Source of the DNA: a virus
Direction: 5' to 3' (one strand)
Virus genome (UHGV): UHGV-0103738
DNA length: 24,037 bases
Within the stretch, counting starts at the first letter, position 1. Each line of letters opens with the position of its first letter. The notes beneath the pieces are model-generated. The model was not told the origin of the DNA, did no database searches, and saw only the letters and a program-made list of their open reading frames with translations. This document shows, piece by piece, positions 4,902 through 22,536 of the stretch. Both the position numbers and the translations under genes were made by a program.

Positions 4902-7900
4902 ATGCAGTCGATCCAATTTAAACGCACACAAACGGCTGGTAAAAAACCAACGCCGGAACAATTATCACAGGGCGAGATCGCCTTACAACTGGCGGACCAT
5001 GTGATTTACACCAAAGATAAAAATAATAACGTAGTCCAAATTAGTGTTTCTCCAGAAAAACACGCTGAACTGAATACGAAAGTAGACACCAACAAGGTCA
5101 ACACAGATAAAGTCATTTCAGCAAATAAAACCGAAGCCGCTAATAATCTGGCTACGGCTAAAGCTGAACTTAATCAGACTATCACTTCTACCCGTGATAC
5201 TCTCAATGCTTCAATCACTGCTGGCGATACCGCAGCCAACAAGCGAATTGATGCTTTGACTACCACAGTAGGTAACAATAAAACCGAAGCGGCTAACGCT
5301 CTGGCGGCTGCTAAGACTGAACTGAATCAGACTATTACTTCAACCCGCGATACTATCAACGCGACAATTAACAAGAACAAGACAGATATTAATGCGCGAG
5401 TTGATCAGACGAATACCAACGTTACCAACTTAACGAATACTGTCGCAGCAAATAAATCAGCAATAGAAAAGACGGTAGCGGATAATAAGAAAGATGCGGA
5501 CACGAAGATCACCAATCTTACTAGTACGGTCTCTGCGAATAAGACAGCCATTGAAAGAACTGTTGCAAATAACAAGGCCAGTGCCGATGCCGCAATTGCC
5601 GCAGCTAACCAGCGAATTGATTCTATTGAAGGTAGTGCCGATGCTGCTTACATCAAGAAGAATACCAATACTAAGCATGGTGGGTATCTGTTAAGCAAGA
5701 CAGCTAACTATTTGGAAGACCAGACAGCGAGAGATCTTAACTACTTTGGTGCTTTCCGTACCAATGGTCAAGATGGACTCATGGATCTAACTCTTAATGT
5801 TCCTCATTCTGCCGGTAAAGCGCACGGTCGCGGATTTACTTTCCGTTATGCGTCTGGTGGATCTCGTGTTGAAACCTATGGTTTTGATAGAGAAGGACAG
5901 AAGAACTTTAGCTATAAGATGTATCACGAAGGTGATAAGCCGACTCCTGGCGAGATTGGCGCATACACCAAAGCCGAAGTTGATAAGATGTTTGTTAAAA
6001 ACGTCGTTATGTCTGTTCCCAATTCTAGCGAAAACGTATCTGCATATTTCAAATTGGCAACCGCAACAATTCCACAAAACGGGCGTAGTGTGTTTTTCCG
6101 TATTCATGGTGGTAATGGTTACAACGTTACGGCATATGATCAGGTTGACGTAGTAGAAATTCTTCTGCGTAGTGGTAACGATAGACCTAAAGGTCTTAAC
6201 GTAATTGCATACCGTAGAAATACAAACAAAGATTTTGAGGTATTTGCTGTCAATACTTCCGGTGATAACTATGATATCTACGTGAAATATCAGCGTTATA
6301 CCGATAACGTTATTGTCGAATATGGGAAATCTGTTTATGTAAGTTTGACGGTTTATGATACGCCGGAAGCCACGTTAATTAAACCTTCCGTTGGTGTTAT
6401 CGGTGGTCGCAACGTAACTCTTTTTAATACTGAAAATAAACGTGGTGTGTTAAGTTTTGATGATAACACACAAAACAGCTATGACATTGTTCACTTGAGT
6501 AACGATAAAGGTACTGGACGGAAATATATTCGTAAATTCCGTAGCAACTATAACGAAATGGTTTGGCATGAAACCGTTCAGGGTGCTGTATATCGTCTTG
6601 CTACCGGTGCTACAGATTCTACAGAAGTTATTAGAATTGATTCTAATAGTGCAATACCGGGTAATTATAAAGGATATGTAATTACTGGTAAAATGGAATT
6701 GCACGGTAGTGGTAATGCGATGACTTTACATCGCCAGACTGGTCAAGCTGCATATATGGCGTGGTGGGATCGTCGTGATGGTAAAAACCAACGTAGTGGT
6801 TATATCGGTCATGCGGATGGTACTAGTGATGGTTTTGTGTGGCGTAATGATGTTGGTGCTAACTCATTTGATTTGGAAGGTAGTGGACAAGTAAATTTGA
6901 CTACAGGAAAAACAAAAATTGTATATACCAATGGTCAATATTATTCCGCTAACGCTGATGCATTCCGTATGATTTACGGTAAGTATGGTGCATTCTGGCG
7001 AAATGATGGTGGTAAAGTTTATCTGTTGTCTACTGCCGAAAATGATAGATTTGGTGGTTGGAACGGAAACCGACCATTCATTTACGATTTGACTAACGGT
7101 AAAGTTACTTTAGGTGGTGATGGTAACGAAGGCGCATTAGTTCTCGAAAGAGATAGCCGTGCTGCTCGATTTGCTGGCGATACATATATCGAGAAAGGGT
7201 TTTTAACCTTCTCTGCTGGGAGAAGCGGATCTCGTGATTATATTCGATTTAATCATTGGGGTGATAGTAATAATGCCCGTGATAACGTTTTGTACCTAGA
7301 AGATAGTCAAGGTAGACATTTTAGCACAGAGCGTGCGATGGGTACTGGTGCTCTTAAAGCAAACTTCTTAGGCGATCTTGAAGTTGGTGGTAAGTTTACT
7401 TGGGGTAAAAATACAGCTACATCCAGCTTTAATATTCGTGCTTGGGGTAACGATAGTCGTAAACAAGTATTAGAATGTGGTGATGAAAGTGGTTGGCATT
7501 GGTATACCCAACGTCCGGGCGGTCCGGGTACTACGGCAATTGAGTTTGCCATCAACGGTACTGTTAAGCCTCAAGCAATTCACACTGGCGGTAATATCAC
7601 GCTTAACGGTGCTGATATTGAATTTCGTCGCACTGGTAATAAGCATATCTGGTTTAGAGATCCAACTGGATTAGAACTAGGTTTGATGTATTCTGATGAT
7701 GCTGGTGTTATTCGCTTCCGTGGTCAGAAACAAGCCCAGACGTGGAAACTTGCGGATAAGATGATTCATCTTGAATCTGGTAGCGTCGGCGGATCTGATA
7801 AAGGTTTGATTCGTGGTAACGTTTCTGGTGGTAGCTGGTCTAGTTGGCGCGATCGTGCATCCGGCTTGCAAGTTGATTGCCCTCAATCAACCGATTCCGC

Positions 7901-8432
7901 TCATAACATCTGGAAAGCTACTCATTGGGGTAAATATCACATTGCAGCAATGGGTGTACACGTTCCTAGCGGTACTATCGGTAACGCTCTTGTTCGTCTG
8001 CATGTTAACGATACTAACTTTGACTTTAACGCTGCTGGTGACTTTACCGCAGGTCGTAACGGTAGCTTTAACGATGTTTACATTCGCTCTGACTCCCGTT
8101 TGAAGATTAACAAGGAAGAATTACAGGACGGTGCATTAGAGAAAGTAAACTCACTGAAAGTCTACACCTACGATAAAGTTAAATCTCTTTCCGATGACAC
8201 GGTGATTAAACGCGAAGTAGGTATTATTGCTCAGGATCTGGAAAAAGTATTGCCGGAAGCAGTAGGTATTCAATCCACCGAAGATCCAGAAAATCCAGAA
8301 GCAATCAAGACTATTTCTAACTCTGCTGTCAATGCTTTAATCATCAAGGCTATGCAGGAAATGGACGCCAAATATAAAGCACAGATCGAAGCATTACAGA
8401 AAGAAATTGCCGAACTGAAAGCAACTAAATAA
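4902..8432 (+). CDS. Side (L-shaped type) tail fibre with a C-terminal intramolecular chaperone / self-cleaving domain (1176 aa)
   Basis: SD GAGGTGA. N-terminal fibre-type motifs, a repeat-rich N/T/A shaft with 51-aa repeats, and a long Gly-rich beta region. The C-terminal ~114 aa begin RSDSRLKINKEE and end in a coiled coil, as in peptidase S74-type chaperone domains of phage fibres and endosialidases (Ser/Lys spacing S1063/K1068). Confidence 0.8.
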   Translation: MQSIQFKRTQTAGKKPTPEQLSQGEIALQLADHVIYTKDKNNNVVQISVSPEKHAELNTKVDTNKVNTDKVISANKTEAANNLATAKAELNQTITSTRDTLNASITAGDTAANKRIDALTTTVGNNKTEAANALAAAKTELNQTITSTRDTINATINKNKTDINARVDQTNTNVTNLTNTVAANKSAIEKTVADNKKDADTKITNLTSTVSANKTAIERTVANNKASADAAIAAANQRIDSIEGSADAAYIKKNTNTKHGGYLLSKTANYLEDQTARDLNYFGAFRTNGQDGLMDLTLNVPHSAGKAHGRGFTFRYASGGSRVETYGFDREGQKNFSYKMYHEGDKPTPGEIGAYTKAEVDKMFVKNVVMSVPNSSENVSAYFKLATATIPQNGRSVFFRIHGGNGYNVTAYDQVDVVEILLRSGNDRPKGLNVIAYRRNTNKDFEVFAVNTSGDNYDIYVKYQRYTDNVIVEYGKSVYVSLTVYDTPEATLIKPSVGVIGGRNVTLFNTENKRGVLSFDDNTQNSYDIVHLSNDKGTGRKYIRKFRSNYNEMVWHETVQGAVYRLATGATDSTEVIRIDSNSAIPGNYKGYVITGKMELHGSGNAMTLHRQTGQAAYMAWWDRRDGKNQRSGYIGHADGTSDGFVWRNDVGANSFDLEGSGQVNLTTGKTKIVYTNGQYYSANADAFRMIYGKYGAFWRNDGGKVYLLSTAENDRFGGWNGNRPFIYDLTNGKVTLGGDGNEGALVLERDSRAARFAGDTYIEKGFLTFSAGRSGSRDYIRFNHWGDSNNARDNVLYLEDSQGRHFSTERAMGTGALKANFLGDLEVGGKFTWGKNTATSSFNIRAWGNDSRKQVLECGDESGWHWYTQRPGGPGTTAIEFAINGTVKPQAIHTGGNITLNGADIEFRRTGNKHIWFRDPTGLELGLMYSDDAGVIRFRGQKQAQTWKLADKMIHLESGSVGGSDKGLIRGNVSGGSWSSWRDRASGLQVDCPQSTDSAHNIWKATHWGKYHIAAMGVHVPSGTIGNALVRLHVNDTNFDFNAAGDFTAGRNGSFNDVYIRSDSRLKINKEELQDGALEKVNSLKVYTYDKVKSLSDDTVIKREVGIIAQDLEKVLPEAVGIQSTEDPENPEAIKTISNSAVNALIIKAMQEMDAKYKAQIEALQKEIAELKATK
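5124..5429 (+). repeat. Two tandem 153-nt (51-codon) repeat units inside the fibre shaft
   Basis: AATAAAACCGAAGC(C/G)GCTAA...CTGAA(C/T)T(T/G)AATCAGACTAT(C/T)ACTTC recurs at 5124 and 5277. Protein units are NKTEAANNLATAKAELNQTITSTRDT... and NKTEAANALAAAKTELNQTITSTRDT... Confidence 0.7.
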
Positions 8433-10023: not shown

Positions 10024-10374
10024 ATGATGCGATCGGGGCTTAGTAAAGATGAAATGGATAATATGCCAATCACTCTGTTTTGGAAATTATACATTTTCGA
10101 CACCTACTTAGAACCACAAAGCCCCGCGTTTCATGATATGCAGAATGCGATGTTGCAATATTCCATGTATATGACGTCGCAAGGAATGACTCGTGAAACT
10201 GCAAAGAAACTCAAGCCTAGCCAATTCCAATTAATTAGAGAAGAAAAACTCTTTAAAACTAAAGAAGAACTGGAAGAACTTGCACGCAAGAAAGAAGAAG
10301 AACGTAAAGCTGCAACATTGAGCATGTTCGATCCATCTTTGCTTGAGAAACTCAGAAGCGCACAAACGGGGTAA
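10024..10374 (+). CDS. Tail assembly chaperone -1 frame segment (gpT-like; frame open from 9979)
   Basis: ORF in the -1 frame relative to 9686..9994. No SD upstream of ATG 10024, and the frame is open back to 9979, overlapping the last five codons of the upstream gene. This fits expression as a frameshift fusion. Confidence 0.5.
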   Translation: MMRSGLSKDEMDNMPITLFWKLYIFDTYLEPQSPAFHDMQNAMLQYSMYMTSQGMTRETAKKLKPSQFQLIREEKLFKTKEELEELARKKEEERKAATLSMFDPSLLEKLRSAQTG

Positions 10375-14120: not shown

Positions 14121-14540
14121 ATGCTAAAAACTAGGCTTATCACCGATTACATCAATTCTTTAATAGGTCAGGAGTTCGTTCAAGGCGAGAATGATTGCAA
14201 TCTCATTGCATGTAAGATCATCGATATTCTCGCTGGTACTGACCTATATAATTCTCTTTATAAAAAATATTCAACTAAAGAAGAAGGCTTGAAAATCTGC
14301 AAAGAATTAAGCGGATATTCAAACATCCTTCAACCAATTAAGAAACATTTCAAATTAGTCACTGATGATTTACAGGACGGCGACTTACTGGTCACAGCCC
14401 ACAAATTAGGAAACCGTAATTATTATTCCGTAGTTCCTCATTATTCCGGTTATGGCCTCGTTGAAGAAGATGGTATCTGGATGACCATTCCTGTTTCAGA
14501 CATTGACTATGAACAAGTTTATAGATTCGGGGGTGAATAA
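14121..14540 (+). CDS. Tail assembly protein, gpK-like with possible NlpC/P60-type Cys motif (139 aa)
   Basis: GGAGG at 14108-14112 sits 8 nt before ATG 14121. ENDCNLIAC resembles the catalytic Cys motif of NlpC/P60 domains. Located immediately upstream of the J-like gene, with a TAATG overlap at 14538-14542. Confidence 0.5.
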   Translation: MLKTRLITDYINSLIGQEFVQGENDCNLIACKIIDILAGTDLYNSLYKKYSTKEEGLKICKELSGYSNILQPIKKHFKLVTDDLQDGDLLVTAHKLGNRNYYSVVPHYSGYGLVEEDGIWMTIPVSDIDYEQVYRFGGE

Positions 14541-17500
14541 TGGGATTTGAAATATTGGTAGGCGCGGTTATTGCTGGTGCGTCTGCTGGGATGGCTGCTG
14601 CTGCAACATTTTCTGTTATGACCGCAGTCGCTATCGGTATGGCTGCTGGTGCAATGACCTTGATCGCTTCCACTGTAGGCGCACCAAAAACACCGAAAGT
14701 ACAAAGCCCAGATAATGCGGTGACACTAGGAACATCAAACGATCCGAAGACAGTATTACCCGTTCTTTTCGGTACTACCCGCACGGGTGCAATCTGCGTT
14801 TACAAAGCAATTTCTAAGCAAGAAAACAATAAGTTAGTGCAAATCTTCGCAATTGCAGAGGGTGAAATCGACCATTACAAAGCACTATTCATCGATAACA
14901 AAAATGTTCTTGTTGGTAAGAACATGACGATCCGTGATGGTGTACTGGACAAAGGCAACATTAAAGAAGAATACCGGAAAGTTTTAGAGGTTGAGTTCCG
15001 CACTGGTAAGAATCCTAACACCGCTTTGTCACTGGCAAAACGTCACTTAGGGTCAGACTGGAACGACAACTACAAAGGCAATGGTATTGCGACCATGTGT
15101 ATTGTGTTGCGTCGTGATGACAAATCTCTTGCTGCTGGTGTTGATATTCTCCAACCAAATAGCCAGGTAGCGGTAGACGTTTGCGGGTTAAAGATTCGTA
15201 ACCTTGAAACCAATGCTATTGAGGCTAGCACTAACGGCGTGGACCAGATTTTCCATTATCTGACAAATACAAAATATGGTCTTAGTGTACCAATTGAAAA
15301 CATCAACGTTGATTCATTCCTGAAAGTACGTAAGCAAGTACGCCAGATGGATTTGCATTCAAACGGTGCATGTGATCCGAACGCCAGCTTTAAAGAGAAC
15401 TTGACTAGCCTTATGCAGACTTTCGGCGGGGTGATGTTCGAATCCTTTGGACGTATTACGCTGAAACTGGATGCTCCTGATATTGTTAAGCATACCTTCA
15501 ATGAAGACAATATCATGATGGGTAAGGTATCACTGAAAACAGGTGGCACTAACGGTTATTTCAATACCATTAACGCGATGTATCAAGAACCATCAATCGA
15601 CTATTCAGAGCAAATGCTACGTTATCCGGCTGATGCTGAAAACGATGCTACTATTCGTCAAGATGGTCGAATTATCGCTAAAGATATTGAATATCGTTTT
15701 GTTAAGTCTAAAGCCCAGATTGATAAACTTGCGAGTATTGAGCGAAATAAATCTCGTATCACTCAGGTTATCAGCTTTATGACTACTGACGCATTCACTG
15801 CCGAAGTTTGGGACGTTATCAGCGTAACCTATGATGAATTGAAGCTGAATAATTCCTTATGGCGTATTACTGCAATTGATCGCTCGATTGATTCTGGTAT
15901 TGCTGGGATGATGACTATCACCGCTACAGAATATAATTCTCAGGTTTATACTGACCTGAACTATGCGGCTAACCCAGATAACCGACCAAGTGGTTTACCG
16001 GATTCAATGACAGTACAGAAGCCTACTAATTTCAGAATTAAGGCAACTGGCGAGACGATTTACGGTAAAAACGTTACTTTGACATGGGATGCACCAGAAG
16101 ATTTTAACCGCTACGGCTTCCAGATTGATTACCGTGTAAGCGGATCACCTAACTGGATTAAGTTGGGACAGACTTCACAGCAAATTTTCAGTGTCAATGC
16201 ACTGGCAAAAGATCGTTCCTACGATTACCGAGTTTGTGCTTTCGGTATCATCGCGAGATCCGATTGGGTAGAACTGATTAACCAGAATCCTACTGTTACC
16301 TATGAATTGCCGACTCCGGTTATTCGAATCAAAAATCAGGGTAGCACGCCAGGAACTTTCGAAGGTAATGATCTGATTATCGAATGGGAAAATCAGCAAC
16401 AATTAGATGTTGAGATCAACGGTGAAACTAACAAGTTTAGTGACCTGTTTGAAGCATACATTATCAAGGTGACTAACAAGGCTGGTAAGTCTATTCAGTA
16501 CCGTACCCGCGATCCTGAATCATGGACTTATACGCTTGATATGAACCAGTTTAACGGCCTTTCGCGTCAACTTACGGTAGAAGTATCAGCTAAGGGCTAT
16601 AACAACTCAGAGAGCGCCCCAGCGCGTTTAGTGGCTATCAACCCACAACATAAGCCAATGAAAGGTTTTAGTGCGCGTGGTGGCTTTAATACTGCGTTTG
16701 TTAGCTGGGCGGATGACGTAGAACATGACTATGCAGGGTCAATCATCCAGTATGCAACCGACAACACTTTCTCAGATGCAAGGGCAGTAAGTACGAATAG
16801 TGTTAGCCATACTTCCTTTGATATTGCTGACGGTGATTATTATATCCGTGGTGCTCACTACGATATTTTCGGTATGGATGATGCTGTTTGGTCTGAACCG
16901 TATTTCATGCAAATGAAGTCTACGATTAGTTGGGACGATCAGGACAAAGAAGCACTGGAAGACCTGATCGGTTTACAAGATCGCTTAGATGAAACTATCG
17001 CGGATGCTATTAAGCAAGCTGGCGCTAATGCCGATGCTAAAATTGATGCAATGCATAAGCAAATCACTACCGAGACGGGTAAAACTGTTCAAGCCTCAGC
17101 CGATACCTTAAAGAGTCTGATTGCTTCTGGTGATAAGGCAAGTTCAACTAAGATTGATCAGGTTAAAGCTGAACTGAAAGGCGATATCACCAAAGAAGTT
17201 AGCGCCTCCGCTACAACCCTGAAACAAGCAATTGCAACCAGTGAGGCAGCAAGCGCAAGTAAGATTGATCAAGTTCGGGTAGAAATGGATGGCAAGATTG
17301 CTGGTGTGAATCAGGAAGCAGATGTAAAAATCGATGCTTTGAAAGGAACCATTAACAGCAAATACAATCTGGCGGTTAATGCAGATGGTCGCGTGGCTGG
17401 TATTCATATGAGCGCAACCAATGATCCGGCAGAACCGACAAGAATCATCTTTACGGCTGATAAAATCGCGGTAGCTCCACAGAATGGATCGGGGGTATGT

Positions 17501-18316
17501 CCGTTTGGTATCGAAGGTAACAAGGTTTATCTCGATAATGCGATGATTCGTAATGCTGCAATTGGTACAGCCCAGATTAATGATGCGGCGATTACTACTG
17601 CCAAGATCGGCAATGCCGCAATTAACAGCGCGAAGATTCAGGACGGGGCAATCACTAACGCCAAGATCGTAAACGGTGCAATTGATAACGCCAAAATTGG
17701 TAACTATATCCAGTCTTCCAACTGGAACGGATCAACCGGATGGCATATCAACAAGAACGGGTCCGCTACGTTCATGAACGCTACCGTTAAAGGTAATATC
17801 ACGGCTGATTCTGGTACTCTGAACAACGTCACGATTAACTCTAGCTGTGTTATTAAGGGTATGCTTGAAGCTACTCAGGTTAAGGGTGATTTCGTTAAGG
17901 TGATTGGTCGTAAGTTCCCACACCGTGATGTTAACGTTGATAATGGTTATGGCGGCTATCCGCAAGGTACAGTAACCGTTCGCGTTGAAGATGATCACAA
18001 GTTCGATCGTCAAATCGTTATTCCGGCGATTAGTTTTGGTGGATTGCGAGCGCGTGAAGGGTCGAACAATAATACCTATTACGACACCTGTCGCCTGATT
18101 GTTCGTAAGAATGGGTCAGAGTTGTATAATAGGGCGTATGGCGGTAATACTGGTCTTTACTCAGGTGTTATTGATATGCCAGCGGGTAAAGGTGCTGTGA
18201 CCTTGACCTTTGAAGTGCAATCAAGCGCAATCAACAACTGGACGCCTAGCACATGGATCAGTGATTTAACTGTAATGGTAACTAAAAAAGCCACTACGGG
18301 TATTACTGTTTCTTAA
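14540..18316 (+). CDS. Central tail fibre / tip attachment protein, lambda gpJ-like, with an N-terminal gpI-like hydrophobic domain (1258 aa)
   Basis: C-terminal ~150 aa resemble the remembered lambda J C-terminus (TLNNVTINSSC..., VEDDHKFDRQIVIP, VIDMPAGKGAVTLTF, DLTVMVTKK). Fibronectin III-like segment around 16000-16300. N-terminal Ala/Gly-rich hydrophobic region followed by APKTPKVQ...VLPVLFG, resembling the lambda gpI C-terminus. Confidence 0.85.
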   Translation: MGFEILVGAVIAGASAGMAAAATFSVMTAVAIGMAAGAMTLIASTVGAPKTPKVQSPDNAVTLGTSNDPKTVLPVLFGTTRTGAICVYKAISKQENNKLVQIFAIAEGEIDHYKALFIDNKNVLVGKNMTIRDGVLDKGNIKEEYRKVLEVEFRTGKNPNTALSLAKRHLGSDWNDNYKGNGIATMCIVLRRDDKSLAAGVDILQPNSQVAVDVCGLKIRNLETNAIEASTNGVDQIFHYLTNTKYGLSVPIENINVDSFLKVRKQVRQMDLHSNGACDPNASFKENLTSLMQTFGGVMFESFGRITLKLDAPDIVKHTFNEDNIMMGKVSLKTGGTNGYFNTINAMYQEPSIDYSEQMLRYPADAENDATIRQDGRIIAKDIEYRFVKSKAQIDKLASIERNKSRITQVISFMTTDAFTAEVWDVISVTYDELKLNNSLWRITAIDRSIDSGIAGMMTITATEYNSQVYTDLNYAANPDNRPSGLPDSMTVQKPTNFRIKATGETIYGKNVTLTWDAPEDFNRYGFQIDYRVSGSPNWIKLGQTSQQIFSVNALAKDRSYDYRVCAFGIIARSDWVELINQNPTVTYELPTPVIRIKNQGSTPGTFEGNDLIIEWENQQQLDVEINGETNKFSDLFEAYIIKVTNKAGKSIQYRTRDPESWTYTLDMNQFNGLSRQLTVEVSAKGYNNSESAPARLVAINPQHKPMKGFSARGGFNTAFVSWADDVEHDYAGSIIQYATDNTFSDARAVSTNSVSHTSFDIADGDYYIRGAHYDIFGMDDAVWSEPYFMQMKSTISWDDQDKEALEDLIGLQDRLDETIADAIKQAGANADAKIDAMHKQITTETGKTVQASADTLKSLIASGDKASSTKIDQVKAELKGDITKEVSASATTLKQAIATSEAASASKIDQVRVEMDGKIAGVNQEADVKIDALKGTINSKYNLAVNADGRVAGIHMSATNDPAEPTRIIFTADKIAVAPQNGSGVCPFGIEGNKVYLDNAMIRNAAIGTAQINDAAITTAKIGNAAINSAKIQDGAITNAKIVNGAIDNAKIGNYIQSSNWNGSTGWHINKNGSATFMNATVKGNITADSGTLNNVTINSSCVIKGMLEATQVKGDFVKVIGRKFPHRDVNVDNGYGGYPQGTVTVRVEDDHKFDRQIVIPAISFGGLRAREGSNNNTYYDTCRLIVRKNGSELYNRAYGGNTGLYSGVIDMPAGKGAVTLTFEVQSSAINNWTPSTWISDLTVMVTKKATTGITVS

Positions 18317-18334
18317 AAATTTAATTTTAATAAT

Positions 18335-18375
18335 TAATCCCGCTTAATTCTTTTGAGTTAGGCGGGATTATTTTT
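18335..18375 (+). terminator. Terminator after the tail-tip gene
   Basis: Stem TAATCCCGC / GCGGGATTA (9 bp) with a long loop, followed by TTTTT. Confidence 0.6.
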
Positions 18376-18420
18376 ATCTAAATAATTCTGCCATGAAATT
18401 ATAAAAATATCGGGGGCGTA

Positions 18421-18699
18421 ATGACTGAAATTATATATGGCGGTATCGGTGTTATCGCCTTAATTTGCGGTGGTCTTTGGAGACTTCACCGAAATCAATT
18501 AGCAACTGAAAATAGATTGTCGAAATTGGAATCCAGCGACGCATTGTTAAACCAGAAGTTTGAGACGATGCAGAATAACCATACTCAGATTGCTGAACGT
18601 GTTTACCAAATGGAACAAACACTACACGGTATAGAGAAGAAAGTGGTTGCGATGGACGCCAAATTTGACCAAGTTCTCGACATACTCAAACAAAAATAA
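18421..18699 (+). CDS. Membrane-anchored coiled-coil protein (92 aa; holin/lysis-regulator or exclusion candidate)
   Basis: SD-like CGGGGGCGTA before the ATG. One N-terminal transmembrane segment (IIYGGIGVIALICGGLW) followed by RLHR and a coiled-coil tail. Confidence 0.5.
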   Translation: MTEIIYGGIGVIALICGGLWRLHRNQLATENRLSKLESSDALLNQKFETMQNNHTQIAERVYQMEQTLHGIEKKVVAMDAKFDQVLDILKQK

Positions 18700-18717
18700 T
18701 AATAAAGGGGTGAATAT

Positions 18718-18888
18718 ATGAAGAATAAACTTAAGAAATATTTTGGTTATCTCTTGATTATCGCCCTCACTTATAACGTAGCAATTAGACCTCTGCTTAC
18801 GTCCTTTGGGCTTGAACTCCCGGCTATGGCCGTGGATGAACAATTGCTAAGGACACTGGCGGGGGTCTTTTCGTTATTAGGGGGCTAA
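18718..18888 (+). CDS. Small membrane protein (56 aa), not in the supplied ORF track
   Basis: SD AAAGGGGTGAA 8 nt before ATG 18718. Sequence MKNKLKKYFGYLLIIALTYNVAIRPLL... has a basic N-terminus and one transmembrane helix. The stop sits 1 nt before the next gene's ATG. Confidence 0.35.
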   Translation: MKNKLKKYFGYLLIIALTYNVAIRPLLTSFGLELPAMAVDEQLLRTLAGVFSLLGG

Positions 18889-18889
18889 C

Positions 18890-19573
18890 ATGGCAACCAG
18901 TACCAATAAACGAAACGCTCTAAGGACTAAGAAAGCGTTACGGCAATGGTCTGAAAAGGCAACCGATACATTCGAAAGGGCGATAGGGGAAGGGGCGATC
19001 TTTGCTGCTCGTGCACTACAGAAGAAGATTAACAAGAATGTTGATAGACCTACTCGCTGGACTCAGCAAGCTGTAGGTAATACCAACTACAAGAACCGAT
19101 CAGGGACCAGACACCAAATCTTCATCAAGGGCGCAAGGGATAAGGACAAGAAGATCGGCAGTCAGGATGACTATCTGAAACACTATTTCGATGGCGGCAA
19201 AATCAATAAGCTAGTGCCAATCGCCAACGGTAAGGTCTTAGACTCCCACGGGAACATTAAGGCCATCAAAGGCGGTAAGATGATGCGTAACATCGAAAAC
19301 GGCAACTTCATCAAGGTAGAGAACAAGGAAGGGACTTTTATCATGAAGAAGTACAAGCCTAAGAAATCCCGAACCAAACGCGCTAAGAATGGATCGGCGG
19401 TGGCAAAACGTCGCTTAGAGAAACGCATCCAGAAACAGAGTAAGCGAATTGTTGCCGTTAAGTCGGATAAAATTTCTACTCGTTATTCGACGCTAGGATC
19501 GTGGGAAAGCAACGAGGAAATGATGCTTAAGAACATTAATAAGCACATTAAATCGCGCATGAGATACGTTTAA
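18890..19573 (+). CDS. Highly basic Lys/Arg-rich protein (227 aa), function unknown
   Basis: ORF tightly coupled to the upstream small gene. Very high K/R content throughout, with no transmembrane segment. Confidence 0.5.
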   Translation: MATSTNKRNALRTKKALRQWSEKATDTFERAIGEGAIFAARALQKKINKNVDRPTRWTQQAVGNTNYKNRSGTRHQIFIKGARDKDKKIGSQDDYLKHYFDGGKINKLVPIANGKVLDSHGNIKAIKGGKMMRNIENGNFIKVENKEGTFIMKKYKPKKSRTKRAKNGSAVAKRRLEKRIQKQSKRIVAVKSDKISTRYSTLGSWESNEEMMLKNINKHIKSRMRYV

Positions 19574-19611
19574 TCCATAAATACCCTCATAGAATCTTAT
19601 GGGGGTATAAC

Positions 19612-19959
19612 ATGGCTAAAAATATTTTCACTGAATTTCCTACTTATCCGGTCGATCAGCTTTCCGGTATTTTTATTAATGGCATTAGCCCAGAATCAAT
19701 GACCTATGATTTTGAGGCGAAGAGAGTTAAACATAAACAATATAAAGAATGTATCCGCGATCATGAAAAAGGGACCGTGTTTTGTGTCGCTACATTGGCT
19801 AAACGTCCTAAATATCGTTTTCGTGTAGGGCAAGAAGTTGATGTGGTTAATCCTTATAGCTTTAACTGTCTGGGCGATGCACGCGCGGTGTGTGTAGGTA
19901 CTGCTCCTTATTACATCAAGGGTATGCGCTTTATTGGTTATATCTTCGAAATGATCTAA
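19612..19959 (+). CDS. Hypothetical protein (115 aa, Cys-containing)
   Basis: SD TGGGGGTATAA before ATG 19612. No recognised motif. Confidence 0.5.
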   Translation: MAKNIFTEFPTYPVDQLSGIFINGISPESMTYDFEAKRVKHKQYKECIRDHEKGTVFCVATLAKRPKYRFRVGQEVDVVNPYSFNCLGDARAVCVGTAPYYIKGMRFIGYIFEMI

Positions 19960-19968
19960 GGGGGTAAT

Positions 19969-20322
19969 ATGTTAAGCAAACATTTTTCTCGCAAGGAATT
20001 TAAATGTAAATGTGGAAAATGTGATTATGATACAATCGACGCTGAATTACTGGTAATTCTTGAGGATGTACGAGAGCACTTCGGGAAGCCAGTAATTATT
20101 AACAGTGGGAACCGTTGTCCGACTCATAATAAGAATGTTGGCGGCGCAACCAATAGCTATCATGTTCGAGGCCGTGCGGCTGACATTGTTATCAAGGGTG
20201 TCTCGCCTGATATTGTTCATGCTTATCTTGATGGGAAATATCCTACTCAATACGGCTTAGGAAAATATAAAACCTTTACGCATATTGATTCCAGATCAAA
20301 AAAATCACGGTGGAATGGATAA
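19969..20322 (+). CDS. Peptidase M15-family zinc peptidase, probable endolysin (117 aa)
   Basis: SD AAGGGGGTAA. Motifs SYHVRGRAADI and FTHID match the His/Asp zinc-binding signature of M15-type cell-wall peptidases. No signal peptide. Confidence 0.65.
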   Translation: MLSKHFSRKEFKCKCGKCDYDTIDAELLVILEDVREHFGKPVIINSGNRCPTHNKNVGGATNSYHVRGRAADIVIKGVSPDIVHAYLDGKYPTQYGLGKYKTFTHIDSRSKKSRWNG

Positions 20323-20328
20323 AACAAA

Positions 20329-20352
20329 AGCGCCTCTGGTGGGCGCTTTTTT
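20329..20352 (+). terminator. Rho-independent terminator ending the + strand late operon
   Basis: Stem AGCGCC / GGCGCT, loop TCTGGTG, followed by TTTTTT, starting 7 nt after the lysin stop. Confidence 0.7.
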
Positions 20353-20536
20353 GTTAGAATATGCTGGCGACGTTAGCTATATTTCTGACCATTTTTTCAT
20401 TATAGACAAATATACCGCAGACGATAAAGTCGTTTTTGACGAAGTAGATCCGTCTCTGGTTGAAGTAATGAAAGAACCGGAAGACCTAGAGCTTGATTTA
20501 AGCCAATTATAGACTCTCTAACGCAATTAAATTAAA

Positions 20537-20558
20537 AAGGGGTACAAATGTACCCCTT
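20537..20558 (-). terminator. Terminator for the convergent – strand unit
   Basis: Perfect 9-bp palindrome AAGGGGTAC / GTACCCCTT with a 4-nt loop. On the – strand it is followed by a T-rich tract (TTTAATTT) and lies 37 nt downstream of the stop at 20595. Confidence 0.6.
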
Positions 20559-20594
20559 AAAGCGTTTGGTTCGTTATACGGCGATTTAGGCCGC

Positions 20595-20852
20595 CTATGA
20601 TTTATTTTCTTGTTCTATGAAAATCTTTCTCACCTCATCAGAATAAATGTCTAGTGATTCCTCATAACATTTTCTGTATTCATCGTAATTACTGGTGGTC
20701 TTTTGACATAGCAATTTCAATGTCTTATGTGCTCCATCAATGAAAGCATCTTCTCTATAGGTTAGCGGTCTACGCATTTCTTGGTCTACGGTTGCCAATG
20801 CCAAGCAAGAATTCATAGATAAAATTAAACCTAAAATCTTAATCATCTTCAT
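20595..20852 (-). CDS. Small secreted protein (85 aa; start at ATG 20852, track gives a TTG start at 20867)
   Basis: N-terminal signal-peptide-like sequence MKMIKILGLILSMNSCLALA followed by a hydrophilic domain with two Cys. The start region overlaps the 3' end of the recombinase gene. Confidence 0.5.
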   Translation of the reverse strand: MKMIKILGLILSMNSCLALATVDQEMRRPLTYREDAFIDGAHKTLKLLCQKTTSNYDEYRKCYEESLDIYSDEVRKIFIEQENKS

Positions 20853-20856
20853 TAGC

Positions 20857-22536
20857 TTAAATTCCAAATTCTTGTAATGGACCTGGTATTTCTTCTTCTG
20901 GTTTCCAGTTCTTATCTGTCAGCATGTCTAAACATGGATGCAGAACAAGCCCGTTACTCTCCAGAATCTGCCTATCATTGATAGTCTTCAAATCAACGAA
21001 GATCCGGCCTTTCCTCGGTCCTCTTGAATTTTCTATTACAACTCTCTGGGTCTTGCCATCGATGTATTCCAGTACAAACAAGTTTTTGTACTTGTCAATC
21101 CTGCTACACCCGATCCGTTTTAGAGCTTGCTTAATCTTAAACCGGACCTTAATGCGATCCTCGTTGTAAACATCTTCTAAATCAAATTCTGCGAGCTTCT
21201 CCCAGCCTTGAGAGTCAACAGAATACATTTCCTCTTCTGCCATCTTAAGTTGATTGTAGAGTGTTTCACGCTCGCTATTGAGGGTAGTAATCTGATCGGC
21301 TAGCTCCTTCGTTGCTCCTGTCATAGCAGAAAGGGTAATCAGGTTATCAATCTTGCGTGATATTTCATCAATCTGTACTTTCAAAGCCGGAACCGGATTA
21401 GCCTTATCTTCAGCAATCCAGATTTTATCAGCCAGCAATTGCAATACAGCTTTCTCTAATTGGTCGCCGCGAAAACTCCAGTTTGTATGCACACATTCAA
21501 TACGACTAGAGCGCATTGCATCGCATGAATAACGATATTGGTTAGGCCGTCTGTTTGTTCCTTTCACCTTAACCATAGCGGAACCGCAATGTTCACATTT
21601 CAATAGACCAACACCACTAAGCAAGGGAATAGGTTTAGCTTCTTCTTTGTCTCCAAAGTTACATGCTCTAACACCAATGCTTTTCTTAAGGTGATAAAAC
21701 TCAGCGTCATCTAGCACACGAGGATAATAATCCTTTAACTCATACTTAACGCCATCTACAGAGATTTCCTTGATACCAATCAAAGCGCGGGTATGGAACA
21801 ACCTTTCAATCATTGCCCGTGACCAGTTTGAATGCCTCTTGTGACTTGCGGCTGGTGGTGGTGTGTATGTCGCGTTAAGGTGATCCAGTATCTCGGCGGT
21901 TGACCGTCCATTCCTGCGTAATTCCACAACTTCCTGAACAATAGGGAAGAAGACCGGATGAGGAAGCACATAACCAGATGTGGTATCAGTCCACCACATA
22001 TTCTTTCCAATTTCCTCGATTGCAACAGCCGGATTTTGTGGATTTTCTTGATGAGCTTTAATCTTAATCAGTGCGCTTGAGTTAGTACGATTGCGCTTAG
22101 TCTGGCTTTCCTCATTACCACGGATGAATAAAAGGATGGAGAACATCAGGTCCATCGGGTTAGCGGTAACAGTATCAAGCGAGTAGATCTTGTTATCCAT
22201 GCCAGTAACAATGGTTATCCCCCTACGGATGATTGAAAGGAATAACTCCTGTGCACTGACAATATCGGCACGGGATAAACGGTCCAAGTTTTCGATGAAT
22301 AGCCAGCTACCAACAGGAACGGATCTACCTATTGCATCAAGGAAACGAGATAGCGCCCCTGTTTTGGAGTTAGCACCCTTAAACGCAGATACACCCAGAT
22401 CCTGATAATCATTTACCAGTTCAAGGTCATACTTTACCGCAATCTCTCTAGCCATCCTGATTTGTCGTTCATAACTCGAACCATCATTCTGACGCATAGA
22501 CGAGAAGCGAATATACGAATACAGTTTAGTTTTCAT
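20857..22536 (-). CDS. Large serine recombinase (integrase/resolvase family, ~559 aa from ATG 22536)
   Basis: N-terminal catalytic motif YIRFSSMRQ (Arg/Ser/Gln spacing of serine recombinases) and ENLDRLSR. Central recombinase region. Cys cluster CEHCGSAMV...YRYSCDAM...ECVH (zinc-ribbon-like), then a coiled coil. Track start is a TTG at 22551; the first ATG is at 22536. Confidence 0.85.
   Translation of the reverse strand: MKTKLYSYIRFSSMRQNDGSSYERQIRMAREIAVKYDLELVNDYQDLGVSAFKGANSKTGALSRFLDAIGRSVPVGSWLFIENLDRLSRADIVSAQELFLSIIRRGITIVTGMDNKIYSLDTVTANPMDLMFSILLFIRGNEESQTKRNRTNSSALIKIKAHQENPQNPAVAIEEIGKNMWWTDTTSGYVLPHPVFFPIVQEVVELRRNGRSTAEILDHLNATYTPPPAASHKRHSNWSRAMIERLFHTRALIGIKEISVDGVKYELKDYYPRVLDDAEFYHLKKSIGVRACNFGDKEEAKPIPLLSGVGLLKCEHCGSAMVKVKGTNRRPNQYRYSCDAMRSSRIECVHTNWSFRGDQLEKAVLQLLADKIWIAEDKANPVPALKVQIDEISRKIDNLITLSAMTGATKELADQITTLNSERETLYNQLKMAEEEMYSVDSQGWEKLAEFDLEDVYNEDRIKVRFKIKQALKRIGCSRIDKYKNLFVLEYIDGKTQRVVIENSRGPRKGRIFVDLKTINDRQILESNGLVLHPCLDMLTDKNWKPEEEIPGPLQEFGI

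Follow-up and report, generated by a model that had tools for sequence, protein, structure and literature searches.

Two small membrane proteins as candidates for the holin-level step in a conserved, endolysin-linked gene module of enterobacterial prophages

The window analysed here, a stretch of 24,037 nucleotides (nt) of the virus genome UHGV-0103738, is the right arm of a ~36-kb temperate siphovirus-like prophage inserted in the E. coli antitoxin gene hicB (NZ_CP080126 2377465-2413268; L001, L002). Behind its tail-tip gene (14540-18316) lie five genes on the plus strand, and this report concerns the first two. The gene p92 (18421-18699, ATG start) encodes a predicted bitopic inner-membrane protein of 92 amino acids, and p56 (18718-18888, ATG start) encodes a small membrane protein of 56 amino acids. 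They are followed by genes for a polycationic protein (18890-19573; 227 amino acids), a soluble protein of no known family that we call p115 (19612-19959; 115 amino acids) and a soluble endolysin of the Peptidase_M15_3 type (19969-20322; 117 amino acids). An earlier note on this DNA had placed two small membrane-protein reading frames between the tail-tip gene and the lysin, and they lie exactly where it placed them. It had described p56 as untracked, which is not so: RefSeq annotates the protein as WP_001406248.1, and p92 as WP_021515509.1 in an almost identical prophage. We consider p92 and p56 the best candidates for opening the inner membrane at lysis, although they fall in no characterised holin family.

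Both are genuine genes under purifying selection. With synonymous divergence (dS) that was substantial and unsaturated, pairwise ratios of non-synonymous to synonymous substitution (dN/dS) were ~0.09-0.14 for p92 and 0.10-0.41 for p56, compared with 0.05-0.16 for the neighbouring lysin. Each start codon is preceded, 6-10 nt upstream, by a GGGG-type Shine-Dalgarno sequence. Indeed, all five genes are co-oriented, tightly packed and equipped with similar strong ribosome-binding sites.

The five-gene unit has terminators on either side. At its 5' end stands an intrinsic terminator (18335-18370, plus strand) made of a 16-bp stem and a T run. The relatives from Salmonella and Providencia keep a hairpin at this place, with a stem whose sequence differs through compensatory changes. 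At the 3' end, directly after the lysin stop codon, is a GC-rich hairpin with A and T runs at its flanks (20326-20350), beyond which lies variable cargo. The genes p92 and p56 are set 1.1-1.3 kb upstream of the lysin, inside one terminator-bracketed unit, and structural proteins aside they encode the sole late-strand membrane proteins of the window. The GC content of the unit equals that of the structural genes, and the unit is therefore not a recent moron.

In p92, three residues (MTE), predicted to be periplasmic, precede a Gly-rich membrane helix (IIYGGIGVIALICGGLW), the sequence RLHRNQ and about 70 residues of coiled coil; the predicted cytoplasmic part counts 72 residues. The hydrophobic segment (residues 4-20) has a Kyte-Doolittle value of 2.0 over 17 residues and includes 5 Gly, and the basic juxtamembrane motif reads W-RLHRNQ..TENRL..LE. 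Residues 27-92 keep to a single continuous heptad frame, in which 79% of the a and d positions are hydrophobic as against 23% of the positions elsewhere. Across 11 p92-family proteins, the N-terminal flank never contains Lys or Arg and carries an acidic residue in all but two, whereas the 15 residues after the helix contain 2-5 Lys or Arg in every member (3-5 in nine of the 11). Because of this charge bias, and following the positive-inside rule, p92 is predicted to be N-out/C-in, its coiled coil lying in the cytoplasm. Hydropathy, heptad frame and the family-wide charge pattern all agree with the earlier reading of p92 as an N-terminal transmembrane segment followed by a probably cytoplasmic coiled coil. 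Of two features looked for in a holin, a transmembrane helix is seen in both p92 and p56, and a highly charged hydrophilic C-terminal domain, predicted to be cytoplasmic, is seen in p92 but not in p56.

The soluble domain of p92 is better conserved than its helix, and 31 positions are invariant in 14 members with identities down to 53%. When we ran word-indexed and exhaustive HMMER searches, the only true relatives to come up were from enterobacterial prophages, namely those of Salmonella, Providencia, Edwardsiella, Proteus and Symbiopectobacterium. The exhaustive search returned 39 matches, which past about ten small single-helix proteins consisted of repetitive coiled-coil noise. A scan of genome contigs with the p92 alignment gave one spurious 13-residue match and nothing else.

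The second protein, p56, starts with a basic N-terminus (MKNKLKKY) and continues with a membrane helix at about residues 9-29 (hydropathy 1.6-1.9), an acidic loop and, at the C-terminus, a short helix of 13 residues whose last letters are SLLGG. Its conserved motif is LTYNV..RPLL, with LTYNV and PLL invariant. An AlphaFold2 model built from the family alignment (mean predicted local distance difference test (pLDDT) score 78.7) has helices at residues 2-29 and 41-53; this picture of one long and one short helix fits the single-membrane-helix protein that had been proposed. p56 falls in phrog_2024, a family of unknown function that is matched by 14 of the 17 p56-family members (best E 4e-4). A Foldseek search of viral structures with the p56 model found nothing significant. 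The best BFVD matches were T4-like phage proteins of ~63 amino acids, one of them labelled 'Holin', all at E > 0.4, and the top 13 included four 'Holin of 3TMs' proteins at E 2-7. One candidate assignment, to the phiLC3/r1t holin family (Phage_holin_1), was rejected because comparison of p56 with the real phiLC3 LysA gave an hhalign P of 0.048 and a probability of 1%. Nor was there a match between p92 and the XhlA-like phiLC3 Orf74.

The enzyme of the unit is an endolysin, matching Pfam Peptidase_M15_3 at 1.1e-27 and the PHROG family phrog_894 'endolysin' at 1.9e-45. It has neither a signal sequence nor a signal-anchor-release (SAR) segment, its maximum hydropathy being 0.72. The lysozymes found in its place in two rearranged relatives likewise lack both. 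Since these endolysins are soluble and cytoplasmic, a hole-forming partner is needed.

The polycationic protein, whose gene starts 1 nt past the p56 stop codon, consists of 25% Lys plus Arg and has no membrane helix; it matches phrog_1924 and the 'minor tail protein' of phages RcCronus and DshS-R4C. Sequence searches of the PDB with this protein and with p115 found nothing, and a single-sequence AlphaFold2 model of p115 was unusable (pLDDT 31). As a separate observation, the polycationic protein exists as two allelic types, only ~30% identical, that have been swapped among E. coli cassettes (L017, L027). The other four genes of those cassettes are 84-98% identical, and such divergence is unusual for a core gene.

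The association of these genes with an endolysin is conserved. p92 and p56 were both present, in the same order, in 31 of the 31 related loci that we examined, and both are conserved in prophages of six enterobacterial genera. In E. coli, Salmonella, Providencia, Edwardsiella and Proteus alike, this block of five genes comes behind the tail-tip gene. Two further relatives are rearranged. In a Symbiopectobacterium prophage (L040), the p92 relative P0097 is encoded 63 nt upstream of the gene for a soluble T4-type lysozyme, after which come genes for a GIY-YIG endonuclease, a homologue of the basic protein, a homologue of p115 and a 97-amino-acid protein that shows homology to p56 in its C-terminal half (hhalign P 8e-6). 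The record of Escherichia phage DCP80 (L042) presents yet another order: a 153-amino-acid helix-plus-coiled-coil protein that resembles the p92 family (hhalign P 1.9e-5), endonuclease VII, a 57-amino-acid p56 homologue, and then the basic protein, a protein resembling p115 and an endolysin of lysozyme type. The p56 homologues of these two relatives match phrog_2024 at 4e-11 and 4e-4, respectively.

Four non-enzymatic families have therefore stayed with an endolysin despite reshuffling and replacement of one enzyme class by another, and on this ground we regard the five-gene block as one functional module. The earlier note had p92 and p56 separated from the lysin by two unrelated genes. Two genes do intervene, but the basic protein and p115 travel with p92-like and p56-like genes in every relative, and they are therefore conserved partners and not unrelated.

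Two side observations attach to these relatives. Homing-endonuclease-type genes (GIY-YIG, endonuclease VII, NUMOD3) sit in or near the tail and lysis modules of relatives (L040 8804-9235; L042 8355-8822; L001 15035-15805) and are absent from the window. The DCP80 record (PQ671644.1) is classed as T-even and is 141 kb long. It opens with ~26 kb of siphovirus-like genes related to those of the prophage, including a capsid gene whose product is 43% identical, a tail-tip gene, the lysis module and a TerS-like gene, and it looks like a chimeric assembly.

We propose that p92, p56, the basic protein, p115 and the M15 peptidase constitute a lysis-associated operon of the phage. Within it, p92 and p56 may jointly perform the holin-level step, a reading that we favour at about even confidence and that singles out neither protein as the hole-former. 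We favour it because the endolysin is soluble, because the module has no suitable membrane proteins other than p92 and p56, because their linkage to an endolysin is conserved, and because N-out/C-in lysis proteins have precedents. The two proteins would accumulate in the membrane late in infection: p92 as an N-out/C-in protein whose Gly-rich helix would suit helix-helix packing, and p56 in an N-in/C-out orientation with one membrane helix and a short interfacial helix. The cytoplasmic coiled coil of p92 would oligomerise and set timing or assembly, as has been proposed for other type I 'holin-partner' proteins. The lesion would then collapse the membrane potential, and the M15 peptidase would reach the cell wall. 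The timing of expression, an interaction between p92 and p56, hole formation and any lysis phenotype are what we infer here.

The precedents begin with the releasin gp25 of phage Mu (DUF2730, PF10805; phrog_736), a type I protein of 99 amino acids with 4 periplasmic residues and a 73-amino-acid cytoplasmic domain (PMC9239132). p92 appears to share its N-out/C-in layout at 92 amino acids, with 3 periplasmic residues and a cytoplasmic helical domain of 72; the charge analysis took in gp25 beside the 11 p92-family proteins and agrees with this likeness. Moreover, the two proteins have the juxtamembrane pattern GG.W..R....TE.R..LE in common, and both genes lie within five genes of an endolysin gene. 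When the p92 family and five DUF2730 proteins were compared profile against profile, hhalign gave P 3.5e-5 and a probability of 72%; when columns were permuted separately within the helix and the soluble part, none of 200 shuffled controls reached that score. Three p92 relatives match phrog_736 collinearly (1e-4 to 8e-3). Single DUF2730 proteins aligned with the p92 family weakly, non-collinearly and inconsistently. With PF10805 itself p92 has no match at E <= 1, and P0097 scores 17.6 bits, below Pfam's gathering threshold of 24.9, whereas Mu gp25 scores 50.4 bits. The genomic settings differ too. The gp25 gene is downstream of the endolysin gene in transposable Mu-like phages, whereas p92 is four genes upstream in an element that has a serine integrase and is not Mu-like. 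What we claim from these alignments is a likeness to releasin in architecture, not membership of its family.

A host protein has much the same design. PspB (74 amino acids) is N-out/C-in, and its single helix is followed by W.WLH..R and a cytoplasmic leucine zipper, as in the p92 layout. The p92 family aligns with PspB over 50 columns at an hhalign P of 4.4e-4. PspB, however, is a stress sensor and not a lysis protein, and NCBIfam gives no PspB match for p92; this similarity, too, is probably architectural.

Lysis proteins of comparable build are known from other phages. Lysis by the Shewanella phage LambdaSo requires Lcc6, which works at the holin level and combines an N-terminal membrane helix with a cytoplasmic tail (bioRxiv 10.1101/2024.01.23.576932). 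It is 65 amino acids long, its gene lies close to the integrase end of a lambda-like prophage, and its likeness to p92 is one of architecture. LambdaSo has a pinholin, a SAR endolysin and nested spanins, whereas in the present phage the M15 lysin is soluble and there is no spanin. Small N-out/C-in proteins have been reported beside other lysis-cassette genes (PMC9671378). The holin-like proteins of actinophages (LysF1b/LysA2b type; 79-145 amino acids) also resemble p92 in having a single helix, a tiny exo-cytoplasmic N-terminus and a charged cytoplasmic C-terminal domain. They differ from it in that their hosts are mycolata and their sequences bear no relation to p92, and the Gordonia representatives are reported to lack coiled coils. 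As for holin families, one p92 relative matches the holin-annotated phrog_1296 (5.8e-6), and P0097, alone among the family, matches Holin_LLH (PF09682), a family with one N-terminal helix and a hydrophilic tail, at E 0.019 with 15.8 bits, below the 24.9 cut-off.

For p56 the comparison of interest is the release holin of gene transfer agents (GTA; PF11351, 'Holin of 3TMs'). Three of the 17 p56-family members match this family at E ~0.1 (best 0.11), and the 97-amino-acid homologue does so collinearly at E 0.052 and 14.5 bits, against a gathering threshold of 24.8 bits. These weak matches of p56 and its homologue cover the C-terminal two thirds of the model. In line with the comparison, the capsid and tail modules of the prophage are of Rhodobacter-phage or GTA-like type, and its tail genes carry GTA-type domains. 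Nevertheless, p56 differs from the GTA holin in having one full membrane helix and not three and in being half as long, and all of the matches are below threshold.

Several observations weigh against a holin-level role. Neither family has a member that scores above the cut-off of a curated holin, releasin or spanin family. A charged tail at the C-terminus, as holins typically have, is missing from p56, which ends in the uncharged AGVFSLLGG and spans the membrane fully at most once. The proteins of p92 architecture that have been tested, gp25 and Lcc6, are accessory factors and not hole-formers (PMC9239132; bioRxiv 10.1101/2024.01.23.576932). The role of gp25, release of a SAR endolysin, cannot apply to p92 because the endolysin here is soluble, and as PspB scores almost as well, the resemblance to releasin may reflect nothing more than a shared architecture. 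The 'minor tail' PHROG label of the polycationic protein means that the operon may mix functions. A terminator splits the unit from the late tail genes, and we detected no sigma-70-type promoter between it and p92. Finally, the sole full-length, high-scoring match to phrog_2024 that we found (1.2e-26) is an unannotated 65-amino-acid membrane protein of the T4-like phage SP18, encoded far from lysis genes on the strand opposite to the dCTPase and primase genes between which it lies (L043 2432-2629, plus strand). Weaker tblastn matches to p56-like sequence occur in 338 mostly T4-like phage records, and T4-like phages possess a holin of their own, T.

This occurrence of the p56 family in T4-like phages away from lysis genes keeps alive an alternative in which p92, p56 or both act in superinfection exclusion or membrane protection, blocking DNA entry or membrane damage as T4 Imm and HK97 gp15 do, so that the adjacent lysin would be incidental. 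We regard this as unlikely. Terminators flank the unit in the manner of a moron, the unit is placed close to the integrase end beside a cargo hot spot that holds helicase-type genes in relatives, and p92 has the architecture of the host stress sensor PspB. By contrast, its GC content is that of the phage core and no promoter of its own was detected, and linkage to an endolysin that is kept through rearrangement and endolysin replacement would not be expected of a stand-alone exclusion gene. No PADLOC family reaches threshold for p92 or p56, nor does any from Pfam or NCBIfam; most exclusion proteins have no family model, so the PADLOC test is a weak one. We also think it distinctly unlikely that the true holin lies elsewhere and that p92 and p56 are modulators (antiholin or timing factors) or unrelated to lysis. 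The earlier note held p92 and p56 to be the only holin candidates, which is so in the window beside the lysin; the left arm of the prophage, outside the window, has two more small, very hydrophobic reading frames with good ribosome-binding sites, on the minus strand after a terminator behind the TerS-like gene (57 amino acids, L002 9894-10067; 33 amino acids, ~10120-10221), which could encode a holin or a toxin. The longer of the two looks holin-like, with two hydrophobic stretches and a KKDTK tail, and its exact sequence occurs on at least 1000 contigs, with some annotators calling it a 'putative membrane protein'; the accessory status of gp25 and Lcc6 would also suit this alternative. Yet this reading frame is far from the lysin, past a terminator, in an AT-rich stretch of the kind where F/L/I-rich reading frames readily arise. 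Neither of the two frames has a RefSeq annotation in the reference prophage, and the DCP80 segment has no room for such a frame directly after its TerS-like gene. No holin or spanin is annotated in the remainder of the prophage.

Two other explanations are less probable still. A virion or infection role, in which the whole unit would serve tail assembly or cell-wall penetration at entry, could be argued from its place directly after the tail-tip gene and from the matches of the basic protein to phrog_1924 and the 'minor tail protein' of RcCronus and DshS-R4C; we judge it very improbable. The 'minor tail' label appears to be positional, as the RcCronus homologue is encoded at the far right end of the record, ~20 genes from the tail genes, and adjoins the small terminase gene if the ends are joined. 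Moreover, the peptidase is small, free-standing and in an endolysin PHROG, and the conserved terminator splits the unit from the tail operon. The tail module, with its DUF6950, Phage-tail_3 and Phage_Tail_Tip domains, may supply a cell-wall-degrading activity of its own, judging by the homologous tail of RcGTA. That p92 is an i-spanin (N-in/C-out, with a periplasmic coiled coil and a partner that is lost or non-canonical) we hold to be hardly credible. Like the spanins lambda Rz/Rz1 and T4 PseT.3/PseT.2, p92 is small and combines an N-terminal membrane helix with a coiled coil. The 'Rz-like spanin' family phrog_739 is matched by p92 (0.036), by P0097 (3.8e-6) and by the 153-amino-acid DCP80 protein (0.001), and P0097 also matches phrog_89 and phrog_214. 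However, the charge bias of all members predicts the opposite topology, and hhalign comparison of the p92 family with lambda Rz and with an i-spanin from the Edwardsiella relative gave P >= 0.2, and with Mu gp23 0.011 over 10 columns. That Edwardsiella prophage has a complete i-spanin/o-spanin pair besides its p92 homologue. Nor is there a lipoprotein partner: a scan of all frames of 18300-20600 found no lipobox reading frame, which bears out the earlier remark that no lipoprotein outer-membrane spanin is visible.

A scan of the same kind recovered the true o-spanin of the Edwardsiella relative, and the lipobox patterns matched elsewhere in the window all belonged to antisense TTG reading frames inside larger genes. 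The Edwardsiella pair is of T4 type, consists of a 108-amino-acid i-spanin and an 83-amino-acid lipoprotein matching PF26831, and is encoded on the opposite strand between the lysin and the integrase. This stretch, from the lysin to the serine integrase (window 20323-20870; L029, L030, L036, L038), is a cargo hot spot whose content differs from genus to genus. Besides the Edwardsiella spanins, the slot holds helicases in Salmonella (UvsW-like) and Providencia (DEAD), a T5orf172 protein in Proteus and a 90-amino-acid secreted reading frame in E. coli. Because the slot varies in this way, spanins are not conserved across the lineage. The E. coli reading frame (20595-20867, minus strand) was considered as a spanin remnant and rejected: its Cys context, MNSC, is off the lipobox consensus, and it has no C-terminal helix and no similarity. 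As spanins are absent from the E. coli version, the step at the outer membrane is either dispensable, done by another protein of the module, or lost. Identifiable spanins are reported to be missing in about 15% of cases (bioRxiv 10.1101/515445).

A bolder reading follows by analogy with the cationic 'disruptin' of phage phiKT. The five genes could be a self-contained, spanin-free lysis system of a novel type in which p92 and p56 would make the inner-membrane lesion and the polycationic protein, possibly with p115, would disrupt the outer membrane. We regard this as a long shot. Were it true, it would provide the first function for phrog_2024, which occurs in hundreds of T4-like phages, and it would mean that phages other than the Mu-like ones use releasin-like proteins together with soluble endolysins.

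The more general proposal, that p92 and p56 share a holin-level role, bears on recent genetics in Mu and LambdaSo, which revealed small type I membrane proteins with cytoplasmic tails as unexpected essential lysis factors. The present prophage pairs such a type I protein with a second tiny membrane protein and, across its relatives, with soluble endolysins of two enzyme classes. If the pair is a holin, it would define two new holin-level families and make lysis genes annotatable across this phage group. What draws attention to the locus is the combination of a releasin-like protein with soluble endolysins, a conserved module free of spanins and a conserved polycationic partner. The widespread lineage offers a compact and genetically tractable system in which to study what a type I protein does where there is no SAR endolysin, and whether enteric bacteria can be lysed at all by a cassette that has no spanins.

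Of 5426 complete E. coli genomes, 56 carry the lineage, with identities of 80-99%, and it also occurs in many Salmonella. It has no near sequenced phage: the fused 670-amino-acid capsid protein is at most 43% identical to any entry of the phage collection, and judged by capsid the prophage is closest to siphophages of Rhodobacter, roseobacter and Ralstonia. Searching 50,697 phage records at the DNA and protein level with the region, p92 and p56 gave no usable match, and a search of a plasmid collection gave none. IMG/VR yielded near-identical prophages only; P0070 and P0071 are absent from it. The nearest annotated phage by capsid, RcCronus, has another lysis layout, with an endolysin and a two-helix protein after the terminase, and offers no guidance.

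Some features of the prophage are noted in passing. No replication module can be recognised in it, and ~6 kb separate its TerS-like gene from that for the large terminase. At the 3' end of the five-gene unit, a reading frame for a very acidic product (20285-20512, plus strand; 65-75 amino acids) overlaps the end of the lysin gene and includes the hairpin in its opening codons; despite its RefSeq annotation, it is doubtful as a gene. The 1258-amino-acid tail-tip protein begins with ~43 residues (window 14540-14670) that make up two hydrophobic segments rich in Ala and Gly, an unusual feature in a soluble tail protein. A gene for a tail fibre of 1176 amino acids (4902-8432, plus strand) stands between the head genes and the tail genes. 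Its 5685-8363 portion is 77-82% identical in DNA sequence to the gene for the distal long tail fibre (gp37) in RB49-like T-even phages, a match suggesting that a temperate siphovirus-like prophage and virulent myoviruses have recently exchanged a receptor-binding module.

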